A stretch of DNA of 64,000 nt from positions 112,842,001-112,906,000 of the forward strand of contig NC_058368.1 of assembly GCF_018350175.1 (NCBI RefSeq), in the 5' to 3' direction. The notes under the pieces are model-generated. The model made no database searches, was not told where the DNA came from, and saw only the letters and a list, made by a program, of their open reading frames with translations. Source of the DNA: Felis catus (taxonomy: Eukaryota). Shown here piece by piece: positions 1 to 43,844 of the stretch; the first letter of the stretch is position 1, and every line of letters begins with the position of its first letter. The translations under genes and the position numbers were made by a program.

Positions 1-2846
1 ATCTAAAAAAACTGTAGAGCAGATCAGTGAAGCCAAGAGTTGGTTTTTTGAAAAAATAAAATTGGTAACCTTCTAGCCAGGCTTCTCAAGAAGAAAAGGG
101 ATATGACCCAAATAGATAAAATCATGAATGAAAATGGAATTATTGCAACCAATCCCTCAGAAATACAAGCAATGATCAGGGAATACTATGAAAAATTATA
201 TGCCAACAAACGGGATAACCTGGAAGAAATGGACAAATTCCTAAGCACCCACACACTTCCAAAACTCAAACAGGAAGAAATAGAAAACTTGAACAGACCC
301 ATAACAAGCGAAAAAATTGAATCAGTTATCAAACATCTCCCAACAAATAAGAGACCAGGACCAGATGGCTTCCCAGGGGAATTCTACCAGACATTTAAAG
401 CAGAGATAATACCTACTCTTCTCAAGCTGTTCCAAAAAATAGAAAGGGAAGGAAAACTTCCAGACTCATTCTATGAAGCCAACATTACTTTGATTCCTAA
501 ACCAGACAGAGACCCAGCAAAAAGAGGCCAATATCCGTGATGAATATGGATGCAAAAATTCTCGATAAGATACTAGCATATCGAATTCAACAGCATGTAA
601 GAAGAATTATTCACCATGATCAAGTGGGATTCATTCCTGGGCTGCAGGGCTGGTTCAACATTAGTAAATCAATCAATGTGATATATCACATTAACAAAAG
701 AAAAGATAAGAACCATATGATCCTGTCAATCGATGCAGAAAAAGCATTTGACAAAATTCAGCATCCTTTCTTAATAAAAACCCTGGAGAAAGTCGGGATA
801 GAAGGAACATACTTAAACATCATAAAAGCCATTTATGAAAAGCCCACAGCTAATATCATCCTCAATGGGGAAAAACTGAGAGCTTTCCCCCTGAGATCAG
901 GAACACGACAGGGATGTCCACTCTCACCGCTGTTGTTTAACATAGTGTTGGAAGTGCTAACATCAGCAATCAGACAACAAAAGGAAATCAAAGGCATCAA
1001 AATTGGCAAAGATGAAGTCAAGCTTTCACTTTTTGCAGATGACATGATATAATATATGGAAAACCCAATAGACTCCACCAAAAGTCTGCTAGAACTGATA
1101 CATGAATTCAGCAAAGTCGCAGGATACAAAATCATTGTACAGAAATCAGTTGCATTCTTATACACTAATAATGAAGCAACAGAAAGATAACGAAACTGAC
1201 CCCATTCACAATTGCACCAAGAAGCATAAAATACTTAGGAATAAACCTAACCAAAGATGTAGAAGATCTGTATTCTGAAAACTATAGAAAGCTTATGAAG
1301 GAAATTGAAGAAGATTGATACAAAGAAATGAAAAAACATTCCATGCTCATGGATTGGAAGAATAAATATTGTTAAAATGTCAATACTACCCAAAGCTATC
1401 TACACATTCAATGCAATCCCAATCAAAATTGTGCCAGCATTCTTCTTGAAGCTAGAACAAGCAATCCTAAAATTTGTATGGAACCACAAAAGACCCCGAA
1501 TAGCCAAAGTAATGAAGAAGAAGACCAAAGCGGGAGGCATCACAATCCCAGATTTTAGCCTCTGAGCTAATCATCAAGACAGCATGGTATTGGCACAAAA
1601 ACAGACACATAGACCAATGGAATAGAGTAGAAACCCCAGAACTAGACCCACAAAAGTATGGCCAACTAATCTTTGATGAAGTAGGAAAGAATATCCAATG
1701 GAAAAAAGACAGTCTCTTTAATAATGGTGCTGGGAGAACTGGACAACAACATGCAGAAGGATGAAACTACACCACTTTCTTACACAATTCAGAAAAATAA
1801 ACTCAAAATGGATAAAGGACCTGAATGTGAGACAGGAAGCCATCAAAACCCTCGAGGAGACAGCAGGAAAAAACCTCTCTGACCTCAGCCACAGCAATTT
1901 CTTACTCAACACATCTCTAAAGGCAAGGGAATTAAAAGCAAAAATGAACTATTGGGACCTCATGAAGATAAAAAGCTTCTGCACTGCAAAGGAAACAATC
2001 AACAAAACTAAAAGGCAACCAACGGAATGGGAAAAGGTATTTGCAAATGACATATCGGTCAAAGGGCTAGTATCCAAAATCTATAAAGAACTCATCAAAC
2101 TCCACACTGAAAAACAAATAATCCAGTGAAGAAATGGGCAGAAAGCATGAGTAGACACTTCTCTAAAGAAGACATCCAGATGGCCAACAGGCACATGAAA
2201 AGATGCTCAACGTCGCTCCTCATCAGGGAAATACAAATCAAAACCACACTCATATACCACATCACGCCAGTCAGAGTGGCTAAAATAAACAAATCAGGAG
2301 ACTATAGATGCTGGCGAGGATGTGGAGAAATGGGAACCCTCTTGCACTGTTGGTGGAAATGCAAATTGGTGCAGCCGCTCTGGAAAATAGTGTGGAGGTT
2401 CCTCAAAAAATTAAAAATAGACCTACCCTATGACCCAGCAATAGCACTGCTAGGAATTTACCCAAGGGATACAGGAGTGCTGATGCATAGGGGCACTTGT
2501 ACCCCAATGTTGATAGCAGCACTTTCAACAATAGCCAAATTATGGAAAGAGCCTAAATGTCCATCAACTGATGAATGGATAAAGAAATTGTGGCTTTCTT
2601 CCACTCTAACCTCTTTTTTTTTTCCTTCCCCTCCCCCATGAGTTTCTGTTAGTTTCTCAGGATCCACATAAGAGTGCATAAGAGACTCCTAAAAACTGAG
2701 AACAAACTGAGGATTGATGGGGGGTGGGAAGGGGGGAAAGTGGGTGATGGGTATTGAGGAGGGCACCTGTTGGGATGAGCACTGGGTGTTGTATGGAAAC
2801 CAATTTGACAATAAATTTCATATTAAAAAATAAATTAATTAAAAAA
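1..2846 (+). mobile_element. LINE-1 (young carnivore/felid, 3'-UTR type A); 5' part lies outside the window; inactive
   Basis: ORFs 103-540, 537-1052, 1377-1565, 1761-2129 and 2126-2641 translate to L1 ORF2p ([35 protein letters not shown] zinc knuckle). Frameshift near 530 and stop at 1050-1052. G-rich 3' UTR and A-rich tail at 2823-2846. Confidence 0.97.
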
Positions 2847-6385: not shown

Positions 6386-6454
6386 GAGGGCTTTTCTCCC
6401 CTGACCTTGGGAACCTCTGAGGGCTTTTCTCTCGTGACCTTGGGAACCTCTGAG
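6386..6454. repeat. 33-bp tandem duplication
   Basis: Units 6386-6418 and 6419-6451 (gagggcttttctc..tgaccttgggaacctct) differ at 2 positions. Confidence 0.9.
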
Positions 6455-19490: not shown

Positions 19491-19599
19491 TATATCAACA
19501 TTTAGAACTTAAGGAATATATCAGGGAAGGTCAGTTCCTGTTGTGAACTCTAATGGCGAATGATACCTACAGTCATTAGCTTTTTTTAGATTTGACTAT

Positions 19600-19850
19600 G
19601 AATCTAGCATTTTGATCAATGCTTTTTCACGAAATATCTCATCTGATCTCCATATTATATAGTATCTCTGTTTTTATCCAGACAGGAAATCTAAGCTTAA
19701 TTTGTTTATGTTCACATAGATTTCTCAGCAGCCAAAGTGGGATTCAAAGCCAAGTCTAGTGTTGGCTTTAGCTCAAGCGGTTACTTCGCATGTGGTTATC
19801 AAAGCCAAGTCTAGTAGAGTTCAGAGCCCATGCTCTATAACCATGCCTCA
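19600..19850 (-). mobile_element. MIR (host of the vault-RNA fragment)
   Basis: gtgggattcaaagccaagtctagt|agagttcagagcccatgctctataacca re-forms the MIR end once the insert is removed. Confidence 0.7.
19761..19800 (+). pseudogene. VTRNA: Tailless 5' fragment retrocopy of vault RNA
   Basis: gttggctttagctcaagcggttacttcgcatgt versus the recalled vault RNA 5' end GGCTGGCTTTAGCTCAGCGGTTACTTCG. Perfect direct repeat tcaaagccaagtctagt at 19744-19760 and 19799-19815. No poly(A). Confidence 0.88.
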
Positions 19851-20368: not shown

Positions 20369-20581
20369 TAGGGTGCCCGACATGGGACACAACAGCAGCC
20401 ACAACAAGATGCCCACTAAAATTTGAATTTCAGATAAGCAATGAATGATTTTTTTAATAGAAGAATGTTCCATACCATTTCCTCCCATGTAATATTTGGA
20501 ACATACTTAGACGAAAAGACTATTTGCTGTGCATCTGAAATTCAAATATAACTGGGTGTCCTATATTTTATCTGCAACCTA
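20369..20581. mobile_element. Palindromic hAT fossil (MER53-like)
   Basis: Arms aaatttgaatttcagataagca and tgtgcatctgaaattcaaatat; end ctgggtgtcctatattttatctgcaacct. Confidence 0.8.
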
Positions 20582-39512: not shown

Positions 39513-42500
39513 TTTTTTAACTTTATTTTTTATTTTTTTAAATTTACATCCAAATTAGTTAGCATATAGTGAAGCAATGATTTCAGGAGTAGATTCCTTA
39601 GTGCCCCTTGCCCATTTAGCCCATCCCCCCTCCCACAACCCCTCCAGTAACCCTCTGTTTGTTCTTCATATTTATGAGTCTTTTCTGTTTTGTCCCCCTC
39701 CCTGTTTTTATACTGTTTTTGCTTCCCTTCCCTTACATTCATCTGTTTTGTCTCTTAAAGTCTTCATATGAGTGAAGTCATATGATTTTTCTCTTTCTCT
39801 GACTGACTAATTTCACTTAGCGTAATACCCTCCAGTTCCATCCACGTAGTTGCAAATGGCAAGATTTCATTCTTTTTGATTGCCGACTAATACTCCATTG
39901 TACATATATACCACATCTTCTTTATCCATTCATCCATCGATGGACATTTGGGCTCTTTCCATACTTGGGCTATTGCTGATAGTGCTGCTATAAACATGGG
40001 GGTGCGTGTGTCCCTTCGAAACAGCACACCTGTATCTCTTGGATAAATGCCTAGGAGTGCAATTGCTGGGTCGTAGGGTGGTTCTATTTTTAGTTTTTTG
40101 AGGAACCTCCATACTGTTTTCCAGAGTGGCTGCCCCAGCTTGCATTCCCACCAACATGAAAAAGAGATCCTCTTTCTCCGCATCCTCGGCAACATCTGTT
40201 GTTGCCTGAGTTGTTAATGTTAGCCATTCTGACAGGTGTCAGGTGGTATCACATTGTGGTTTTGATCCGTATTTCCCTGATGATGAGTGATGTTGAGCAT
40301 TTATTCATGTGTCGATTGGCCATCTGGATGTCTTCTCTGGAGAAGTGTCTATTCATGTCTTTTGCCCATTTCTTCTCTGGATTATTTGTTTTTATGTGTG
40401 TTGAGTTTGATAAGTTCTTTGTAGATTTTGGATACTAACCCTTTATCTGATATGTCATTTGTAAATATCTTCTCCCATTCTGTCAGTTGCCTTTTAGTTT
40501 TGCTAATTGTTTCCTTCACTGTGAAGAAGCTTTTATTTTGATGAGGTCCCAGTAGTTCATTTTTGCTTTTGTTTCCCTTGCCTCTGGAGACGTGTTGAGT
40601 AAGAAGTTGCTGTGGCCAAGATCAAAGAGGTTTTTGCCTGCTTTCTCCTCAAGGAGTTTGATGGCTTCCTGTCTTACATTGAGGTCTTTCATCCATTTTG
40701 AGTTTATTTTTGTGTCTGGTGTAAGAAAGTGGTCCAGGTTCATTCTTCTGCATGTCACTGTCCAGTTTTCCCAGCACCACTTGCTGAAGGACTGTCTTTA
40801 TTCCATTGGATGTTCTTTCCTGCTTCATCAAAGATTAGTTGGCCATACTTTTGTGGGTCCATTTCTGGGTTCTCTATTCTATTCCATTGATCTGAGTGTC
40901 TGTTCTTGTGCCAGTACCATACTGTCTTGATGATTACAGCTTTGTAGTATAGCTTGAAGTCTGGGATTGTGAGGCCTCCTGCTGTGGTTTTCTTTTTCAA
41001 GATCGCTTTGGCTATTTGGGGTCTTTTCTGGTTCCATACAAATTTTAGGATTATTTGTTCTAGCTCTGTGAACAATGCTGTGTTACTTTGATAGGAATCA
41101 CGTTGAATATGTAGATTGCTTTGGGTAGTGTCGACATTTTAACAATATTTGTTCTTCCTATCCAGGATCATGGCATCTTTTTCCATTTCTTTGTGTCTTC
41201 TTCAATTTCTTTCATAAGCTTTCTATAGTTTTCAATGTATAGATTTTTCAGCTCTTTGGTTAGATTTATTCCTAGGTATTTTATGGGTTTTTGGGCAACT
41301 GTAAATGGGATCGATTCCTTGATTTCTCTTTCTGTTGTTTCATTGTTGGTGCATAGGAATGCAACCGATTTCTGTGCATTGATTTTATATCCTGCAACCT
41401 AGCTGAATTCATGAATCAGTTCTAGCAGTTTTTTGGTGGAATCTTTTGGGTTTTCCACATAGAGTATCATGTCATCTGTGAAGAGTGAAAGTTTGACCTC
41501 CTCCTGGCTGATGTGGATGCCTTTTATTTCTTTGTGTTGTCTGATTGCAGAGGCTAAGAATTCCAATACTATGTTGAATAACAGTGGCGAGAGTGGACAT
41601 CCCTGTCTTGTTCCTGACATTAGGGGGAAAGCTGTCAGTTTTTCCCCATTGAGGATGATATTAGCATTGGGTTGTTCATATATGGCTTTTATGATCTGGA
41701 GGTATGTTCCTTCTATTCCTGCTTTCTTGAGGGTTTTTATCAAGAAAGGTTGCTGTATATTGTCAAATGCTTTCTCTGCATCTATTGAGAGGATCATATG
41801 GTTCTTGTCCTTTCTTTTATTGATGTGATGAATCACGTTAATTGTTTTGTGGATATTGAACCAGCCCTGCATCCCAGGTATAAATCCCACTTGGTCGAGG
41901 TGAATAATTTTTTTAATGTATTATTGGATCCGGTTGGCTAATGTCTTGTTGAGGATTTTTGCATCCATGTTCATCAGGAAATTGGTCTATCGTTCTCCTT
42001 TTTAGTGGGGTCTCTGTCTGGTTTTGGAATCAAGGTAATGCTGGCTTCAAAGAAAGAGTTTGGAAGTTTTCCTTCCATTTCTATTTTTTGGAACAGTTTC
42101 AAGAGAATAGGTGTTAACTCTTCCTTAAATGTTTGGTAGAATTCCCCTGGAAAGCCATCTGGCCCTGGACTCTTGTTTTTTGGCAGATTTTTGATTACTA
42201 ATTCGATTTCCTCACTGGTTATGGGTCTGTTCAAATTTTCTATTTCTTCCTGTTTCAGTTTTGGTAATATATATGTTTCTAGGAATTTGTCCATTTCTGC
42301 CAGATTGACCATTTTATTGGCATATAATTGTTCATAATCTCTTATTATTGTTTTTATTTCTGTTGTGTTGGTTGTGACCTCTCCTCTTTCATTCTTGATT
42401 TTACTTATTTGGGTCCTTTCCTTTTCCTTCTTGATCAAACTGGCTAGTGGGTTATCAATTTTGTTAATTCTTTCAAAGAACCAGCTTCTGGTTTCATTGA

Positions 42501-43844
42501 TCTGTTCTACTGTTTTTTTGGTTTCGATAGCATTAATTTCTGCTCTAATCTTTATTATTTCCTATCTTCTGCTAGTTTGGGGTTTTATTTGCTCCTCTTT
42601 TTCCAGCTCCTTACGGTGTAAGGTTAGGTTGTATATCTGAGATCTTTCTTCCTTGTTTAGGAAGGCCTGGATTGCTATTTACTTTCCTCTTATGACCGCC
42701 TTTGCTGCATCCCAGAAGTTTTGGGTTGTGGTGCTATCATTTTCATGACTTCCATATATTTTTTAATTTCCTCTTTAACTGCTTGGTTAGCCTATTCATT
42801 CTTTAGTAGGATTTTCTTCAGTCTCCAAGTATTTGTTACCTTTTGAAATTTTTTCTTGTGGTTGATTTCGAGTTTCATAGCATTGTGGTCTGAAAATATG
42901 CACAGTATGATCTCGATCTTTTTGTACTTACTTAGGGCTGATTTGTTTCCCAGTATATGGTCTATTCTGGAGAATGTTCCATGTGCACTGGAGAAGAATG
43001 TATATTCTGCTACTTTAAGATGAAATGTTCTGAATATATCTGTTAAGTCCATCTGGTCCAGTGTGTCATTCAAGGCCATTGTTTCCTTGTTGATTTTTTG
43101 ATTAGATGATCTGTCCATTGCTGTGAGTGGGGTGTTGAAGTCTCCTACTATTATGGTATTACTATCAATGAGTTTCTTTATGTTTGTGATTAATTGATTT
43201 ATATATTTGGGTGCTCCACATTTGGCACATAAATGTTTACAATTGTTAGGTCTTCTTGGTCTATAGACCCCTTGATTATGATATAATGCCCTTCTGCATC
43301 TCTTGATACAGTCTCTATTTTAAAGTCTATATTGTCTGATATAAGTATGGCTACTCCGGCTTTCTTTTGTTGACCATTAGCATGATAGATTGTTCTCTAT
43401 CCCCTTATTTTCAATCTGTAGGTGTCTTTAGGTCTAAAGTGGGTCTCTTGTAAACAGCATATAGATGGATCTTGTTTTCTTATCCATTCTGTTACCCTAT
43501 GTCTTTTGATTGGATCACTGAGACCATTGACATTTAGAGTGAGTACTGAAAGATATGAATTTATTGCCATTATGATGCTTGTAGAGTTGGAGTTTCTGGT
43601 GGTGTTCTCTGGTCCTTTCTAATGCTTTGTTGCTTTTGCTATTTATATATATATATATTTTTTTTTTCATCTTTTTTCCCCTCAGAGAGTCCCCCTTAAA
43701 ATTTCTTGCAGGGCTGATTTAGTGGTCACAAACTCTTTTAATTTTTGTTTGTCTGGGACACTTTTTATCTCTCCTTCTATTTTGAATGACAGCCTTGCTG
43801 GATAAAGAATTCTTGGCTGCATATTTTTCTGATTCAGCACACTG
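39513..43844 (-). mobile_element. L1 (type B): ORF1 C-terminus, disrupted full ORF2, 3' UTR and tail; 3' part of the U6/L1 chimera
   Basis: ORF1 end SVLNQKNMQPRILYPARLSFKIEGEIK..LRGTL* (stop at 43682-43684). ORF2 starts at 43570 (MAINSYLSVLTLNVNGL) and ends near 39764, split over many frames, with FTDD at the RT active site. Confidence 0.97.

Follow-up and report, generated by a model that had tools for sequence, protein, structure and literature searches.

The window, the whole 64-kb stretch of Felis catus DNA analysed here, carries a 38-nt insert bracketed by a perfect 17-nt direct repeat (Table 1), with coordinates and sequence exactly as described in the original prediction. A non-simple exact 17-mer that recurs 27-117 nt onward was found at only two places in the 64 kb, this target site duplication (TSD) and a 33-bp tandem duplication at 6386-6453, which comprises about two copies with a few differences. 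The first one or two bases of the 5' TSD are assignable to the target or to the RNA alike, and a 14-nt inverted repeat links the TSD with the 5' end of the insert. Over nt 3-40 of its parent vault RNA gene, the insert matches at 36 of 38 bases. The two differences are C5T, a CpG change, and G32A, which is common to other copies; nt 1-2 are absent or altered. The predicted vault match therefore stands, with two base differences in place of about one, and the extra A, at first read as a change in the copy, is already present in the parent gene.

In a scan of 81 bases, the insert matches the Rfam Vault model at 24.4 bits (E 0.00077), under the 34-bit cut-off, and a scan of the surrounding 1.6 kb returns no Vault match; annotation pipelines would therefore miss it. 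The alignment cuts the model at its 3' side, and no A run longer than 4 follows the copy, in agreement with the proposed lack of a box B and a poly(A) tail. The next TTTT lies 209 nt past the copy. The window copy thus lacks the full set of box A, box B, terminal stem and terminator of a functional vault RNA gene, and no function is indicated.

The surrounding sequence is a dispersed repeat which we take to be a MIR. With the home site masked, a profile was built from 61 of its copies across 280 kb of the neighbouring DNA. It aligns to the empty site unbroken (positions 38-261, 30.5 bits) and to the filled site only in two pieces (18.1 and 4.0 bits), which bears out the claim that removal of the insert restores a contiguous MIR. 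A single-sequence nhmmer search with the empty site gave weak matches only (best E 0.077), and a second MIR seed found no family in the nearby DNA. Taken together, these features support the reading of the insert as a tailless retrocopy of the 5' part of a vault RNA, placed within an older repeat and flanked by a TSD at an L1-type target. A new Pol III unit formed from the box A of the insert and the reversed box B of the host repeat found no support. No host gene was found around the insert in the 52 of 79 window frames scanned, among which only LINE fragments exceeded the cut-off; LINE reverse transcriptase and endonuclease fragments (Pfam RVT_1, Exo_endo_phos) lie at 501-1049 (+) and 41402-43319 (-). 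A palindromic element at 20410-20556, presumably a miniature DNA transposon, has weak similarity to mir-1302 (24 bits, below cut-off).

Table 1. Features of the insert and its host repeat in the window
Feature	Position	Strand	Remarks
Host ancient SINE, left part	19593..19760	-	Spans profile positions 38 to about 235; strand taken from the tRNA-like end, which lies at right
5' TSD copy	19744..19760	+	17 bp; starts at a Y/AAAG L1-endonuclease-type site
Vault RNA copy, parent nt 3-40	19761..19798	+	Box A region and start of central domain; without box B or tail
3' TSD copy	19799..19815	+	17/17 identical to the 5' copy
Host ancient SINE, right part	19816..19842	-	Profile to position 261; no gap after removal of insert and one TSD

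The source gene between TGFBI and SMAD5

An intact 99-nt vault RNA gene lies at C1:112478408-112478506 and scores 82.3 bits with the Vault model. It is one of two places that the model finds among 49 candidates, the only ones scored, and a further intact vault gene may exist beyond them. The other is a decayed gene (L012, C1:116565426-116565515; 39.6 bits) with altered boxes A and B. Fasciclin exons, which mark TGFBI, flank the intact gene (112.478 Mb) on one side at C1 112.449-112.462 Mb, and MH1 and MH2 exons, which mark SMAD5, on the other at 112.54 and 112.56 Mb. The decayed gene sits between histidyl-tRNA synthetase exons and the protocadherin cluster starting at 116.64 Mb, the position of VTRNA1. 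Both placements agree with the VTRNA2 and VTRNA1 positions given in PMC7058938.

Human VTRNA2-1/nc886 and the parent have in common the TGFBI-SMAD5 locus, the 5' start and an additional A within box A (PMC7058938 and the sequence printed in PMC11349216, both in part). From its position between TGFBI and SMAD5, its nc886-like 5' start and the extra A, the source of the insert is the VTRNA2-1/nc886-locus gene, the sole intact vault RNA gene found in the genome. A VTRNA1-type source does not hold: the TGFBI and SMAD5 exons around the intact gene, together with the decayed copy near the protocadherins, rule out the VTRNA1 locus as parent. In contrast to the human set of vault genes, no intact gene other than that at the VTRNA2 locus was found in the cat genome, where the VTRNA1 copy is decayed; VTRNA1 appears to have been lost in the lineage and VTRNA2 retained, opposite to the pattern reported for mouse (10.1101/2021.12.03.471165, in part).

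Compared by eye, the parent and human nc886 are alike at both ends and differ in the central domain. The orthologue criterion of 10.1101/2021.12.03.471165 is at least 80% similarity to human nc886 with a PKR-binding hairpin, which according to that text only primates and three rodents reach. A CRE-like motif lies about 57 nt upstream of the cat parent; in human, such a motif is located upstream of all transcribed vault genes and is missing at the pseudogenes (PMC7058938, in part). The TSD finder used for the copies returns 9 bp with 2 mismatches when applied to the parent gene.

A family of 20 copies and their junctions

A 25-mer of the insert occurs at 10 exact places in the genome and at 21 with up to 3 mismatches, as opposed to 0 for the reversed control. 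These 21 places are the parent and 20 copies, namely the window copy and 19 more, so that further copies with the same 3' breakpoint, a point raised by the original prediction, do exist. Twenty is a lower bound, as older or gapped copies escape the 25-mer pattern with 3 mismatches. L022 and L023 are diverged and have less clear junctions, the register of L023 being off by a small indel; both are kept in all counts. Every copy starts within 2 nt of parent nt 1, and the upstream flanks show nothing in common with that of the parent (5-11 of 30 bases alike across the 20), which together point to a transcript as the template. All 20 also carry TSDs of 9-21 bp with 0-2 mismatches and stop at nt 40-43. 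None has an oligo(A) tail: over the 20 nt that follow nt 40, A runs do not exceed 4 in any copy. A box B 26-mer (up to 3 mismatches) and a BLAST search with the 3' 65 bases found only the parent in the genome, and hence no full-length copy.

These copies do not form a SINE family, as they lack box B and a tail and lie in 20 unrelated flanks. Eight are unchanged over nt 1-39 apart from nt 32, which makes the family young; the age signs of the window copy are its one CpG change and its identical TSDs. A search for shorter 5' copies (19-mer, 1 mismatch) gave 24 places, 21 of them known, against 1 for the control, and the three additional places (L035-L037), where the sequence past the 19-mer departs from vault RNA, were dropped as chance matches. 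A search for copies lacking the extra A gave 1 match at 3 mismatches versus 1 control match and was likewise discounted. The SINE common in the copy loci resembles what we take to be the carnivore Can-SINE of cats. At L004, about position 1460 on the minus strand, a tRNA-derived SINE, presumably of Can-SINE type, starts right at the end of the 3' TSD as a nested later insertion.

For the junction analysis, the target of each copy was placed in the register of the parent. The copies follow the parent over nt 33-40 (14 of 17 informative cases at nt 40) and the target from nt 43 (13/15 at nt 43, 16/17 at nt 46). Targets have a pyrimidine at registers 41 and 42 in 18 and 19 of 20 cases, and A at registers 43, 44 and 45 in 13, 17 and 16; two pyrimidines followed by an A-rich stretch is the L1 endonuclease pattern. 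The first purine past nt 40 falls at register 43 in 16 targets, at 44 in three and at 41 in one, in agreement with A44-A45 of the RNA. On the 5' side, 13 copies have 1-4 extra bases, three are blunt and four overlap the TSD; T makes up 16 of the 23 extra bases, which would reflect untemplated A added to the cDNA end.

After nt 40 the modern parent reads C-T-T-A-A-C-C rather than the anticipated TATCAAA, so the five-base microhomology proposed for TCAAA is absent with today's gene. The likeness between targets and parent is concentrated at nt 42, 44 and 45 (15, 17 and 16 of 20) and drops at nt 43, 46 and 47 (5, 3 and 3 of 20). An 8-nt match between target and RNA occurs only in L018, and the C-T-T before the A run that priming on A44-A45 of today's RNA would lead one to expect is found in just two of the 20 cases (L005 and L018). 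Extended target-RNA pairing at nt 41 is not significant (Fisher p 0.14). Three copies (L002, L013, L015) have C at nt 42 where their targets also read C (3/3 vs 1/17; Fisher p 0.0035); in these cases the duplicated segment seems to begin one base ahead of the usual nick, or else an older RNA had C at nt 42. Two of these three targets resemble SINE tails.

Probable LINE-1 copying and the state of the template

The source gene, the family with its common ends and TSDs, the target motif and the missing tail are direct observations. The fact that the copies begin at nt 1, their TSDs and their targets lend strong support to an RNA intermediate and to LINE-1 as the enzyme. The account that we consider most probable, with reasonable though far from full confidence, is that the insert is a 5' copy of the TGFBI-SMAD5 vault RNA made by LINE-1 ORF2p with internal priming near nt 42-45. 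In such an event, ORF2p would nick a Y/AAAA site, reverse transcription would start within the vault RNA on a short U-A-A run around nt 42-45, and the enzyme would copy to the 5' end of the RNA, often adding one to four untemplated bases; the product would be a dead fragment that lacks a tail and retains only box A. The tailless form, TSD and L1-type target of the predicted L1-made retropseudogene are thus retained, without its TCAAA microhomology to the parent of today.

We hold with moderate confidence that ORF2p primed inside an intact RNA and not on the end of a cleaved one. Internal priming is somewhat favoured by the fixed A-run register, by the lack of added A and by the use of the A pair at nt 44-45 rather than those at nt 17 or 52, and also by two papers that, in the parts available, report the same anatomy and favour such priming in the same class (Noll et al. 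2015, PMC5322556; Doucet et al. 2015, PMC4476161). Against it, the likeness of target and RNA is no longer than the endonuclease motif itself, and the copies without C-T-T before the A run would need an older A43 allele, where only L007 and L021 give an A43 that comes from neither target nor parent. The predicted fold of the parent also leaves nt 40-43 mostly unpaired (0.66-0.98) and pairs A44-C47 (unpaired 0.04-0.19), a prediction only, with z -1.5. Finally, an RNA cut immediately ahead of the A run would produce identical junctions.

We weigh, as possible although clearly less probable than internal priming, that the template was a processed 5' fragment, cut by a nuclease at the unpaired nt 40-43, on whose end ORF2p primed with one or two paired bases. 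The break lies where the fold turns from unpaired nt 40-43 to the predicted stem at nt 44-47, no complementarity extends beyond the endonuclease motif, all 20 copies stop at this point, with no full-length one among them; small vault RNA fragments are moreover known from human cells (10.64898/2026.03.10.710617, in part). However, none of the 20 copies has an oligo(A) remnant, and the A-run register is fixed whether nt 41 is T or C, as would suit priming at one set position within the RNA. That study set limits of 16-35 nt for the human fragments that it annotates, and a 41-43-nt vault half is absent from the available parts of it and of PMC13692180, where the mapped vault RNA cut, by ELAC1, is at the 3' tail. 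Noll et al. looked in vain for truncated 5S and U2 RNAs that would match their copies (PMC5322556). Under the fragment reading, the copies would be the fossil record of a vault RNA half 41-43 nt long.

The distance between the window copy and its source gene is 383 kb (window 19761 vs C1:112478506), and the chance that one of 20 random copies lands that near, computed after the fact, is 0.006. This closeness may hint at capture near the gene, as a single case. Together with the 14-nt inverted repeat that joins the 5' end of the insert and the TSD, it could suggest a templated insertion, in which a repair polymerase captured the sequence at a DNA break, the window copy perhaps being a local event. 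We find this improbable, and largely refuted by the common target motif: TSDs of 9-21 bp occur in 20/20 copies at L1-type targets, the copies start at the first base of the transcript and no genomic flank was copied with them. The window copy itself has the same anatomy as the 19 distant copies and carries an A32 that is missing from today's parent. A local tandem duplication with a short vault-like filler, for which one might cite an insert of only 38 nt under the Rfam cut-off and the presence of short tandem duplications in the window, is refuted by the 25-mer counts (10 exact, 21 with up to 3 mismatches), the zero reversed control and the match to an intact gene (82.3 bits), and we give it practically no weight.

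Known tailless retrocopies and candidate parent alleles

Tailless retropseudogenes were reportedly treated by Schmitz et al. in 2004. The sources described for such copies are tRNA, rRNA, snRNA, snoRNA, 7SK, 7SL and mRNA, and all ncRNAs are held to be possible templates (PMC2912911, in part). The therian set of Noll et al. resembles the vault copies in being 5'-complete, 3'-truncated at a defined position and free of oligo(A), with TSDs and an extra T or A of the target at the break (PMC5322556, in part). The Group III snRNA pseudogenes of Doucet et al. are likewise truncated at a purine run after T, with TSD ambiguity at the T, and are in strong excess in cat, dog and ferret (PMC4476161, in part). 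In contrast to both, the source here is a vault RNA: by term search, vault RNA occurs 0 times in the main text and 6 of 7 supplements of PMC5322556, 'vault' 0 times in PMC4476161, whose sources are snRNAs only, and tailless vault copies are absent from 10.1101/2025.02.02.635956. Compared with the set of Noll et al., every vault copy found in this genome is tailless. In cat, 236/279 U6 copies are 3'-truncated, as are 316/415 in dog and 440/504 in ferret (PMC4476161, Table 2). If the SINE at the copy loci is Can-SINE, the pattern of the vault copies would fit this carnivore excess.

Dispersed vault pseudogenes have been reported or proposed (PMC7058938, PMC8287541, PMC11349216, 10.1101/2021.12.03.471165), among them the annotated human VTRNA2-2P and VTRNA3-1P (PMC8287541); the available parts of these four sources do not describe 5'-only tailless copies. 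The human vault RNA retrotransposon reported with retroSeeker is, like the cat copies, an L1-copied vault RNA with perfect TSDs, but it has a poly(A) region, and 'tailless' and 'truncat' occur 0 times in that paper (PMC11727581, in part). Tailless copying is thus of a known kind, and vault RNA as its source seems to be undescribed. Our literature searches found no description of tailless vault copies; work by Stadler et al. from 2009, said to cover further vault pseudogenes, or supplements outside the searches could list some. The retracted PMC5773200 was left aside.

The copies add vault RNA to the sources of tailless retrocopies, and they show that, in a lineage with a decayed VTRNA1 copy, RNA from the nc886 locus was present in the germline or the early embryo. 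With 20 events, one 99-nt template and one end, they offer a small and clean set of cases on which to weigh internal priming against cleaved templates, and can serve as presence/absence markers for the lineage. Several copies are identical to the parent over nt 1-31 and therefore complicate the mapping of 5' small vault RNA reads. The value lies in the family rather than in any single copy: one source, one end, no full-length member and hints of lost alleles.

Those hints come from bases that the copies share and the parent lacks. A32, which the window copy carries and today's parent does not, is found in 14 of 20 copies, among them six with no other change over nt 1-39; the opposite CpG change occurs in only two, and A32 was therefore probably present in the RNA template. 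At nt 41, ten copies have T and nine C. The T41 copies are more diverged (Mann-Whitney p 0.029), and eight of the ten could take their T from the target. Bases that come from neither target nor parent are T41 in L010 and L014, A43 in L007 and L021, and C40 in L006 and L008, some of which could be explained by single later changes in the 5' TSD. Judged from the copies themselves, the non-parent bases common to many of them (A32 in 14/20, T41 in 10/20) suggest older parent alleles, and we consider it moderately well supported that the loop of the parent changed over time. The original TATCAAA may accordingly be true of an older parent allele. We also envision, as a speculation that we rate as rather unlikely, that the 20 copies are a time series of a germline nc886-type vault RNA, recording extinct loop alleles, a nuclease-made 41-43-nt 5' half ending at the bulge before the central stem, and one nuclear capture beside the gene.

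In this register human vtRNA1-3 reads A-T-C-A-A-A-C-C, like the window copy (PMC12992080, in part), and human nc886 reads A-C-T-T, like the modern parent (PMC11349216, in part), both compared by eye. A four-step history of the loop from a vtRNA1-3-like A-T-C-A-A-A-C-C was considered and is only a possibility, given that the true orthologue, nc886, reads like the modern parent. L006 and L008, otherwise perfect and located on different contigs, both carry A40C, likely a further lost parent allele.
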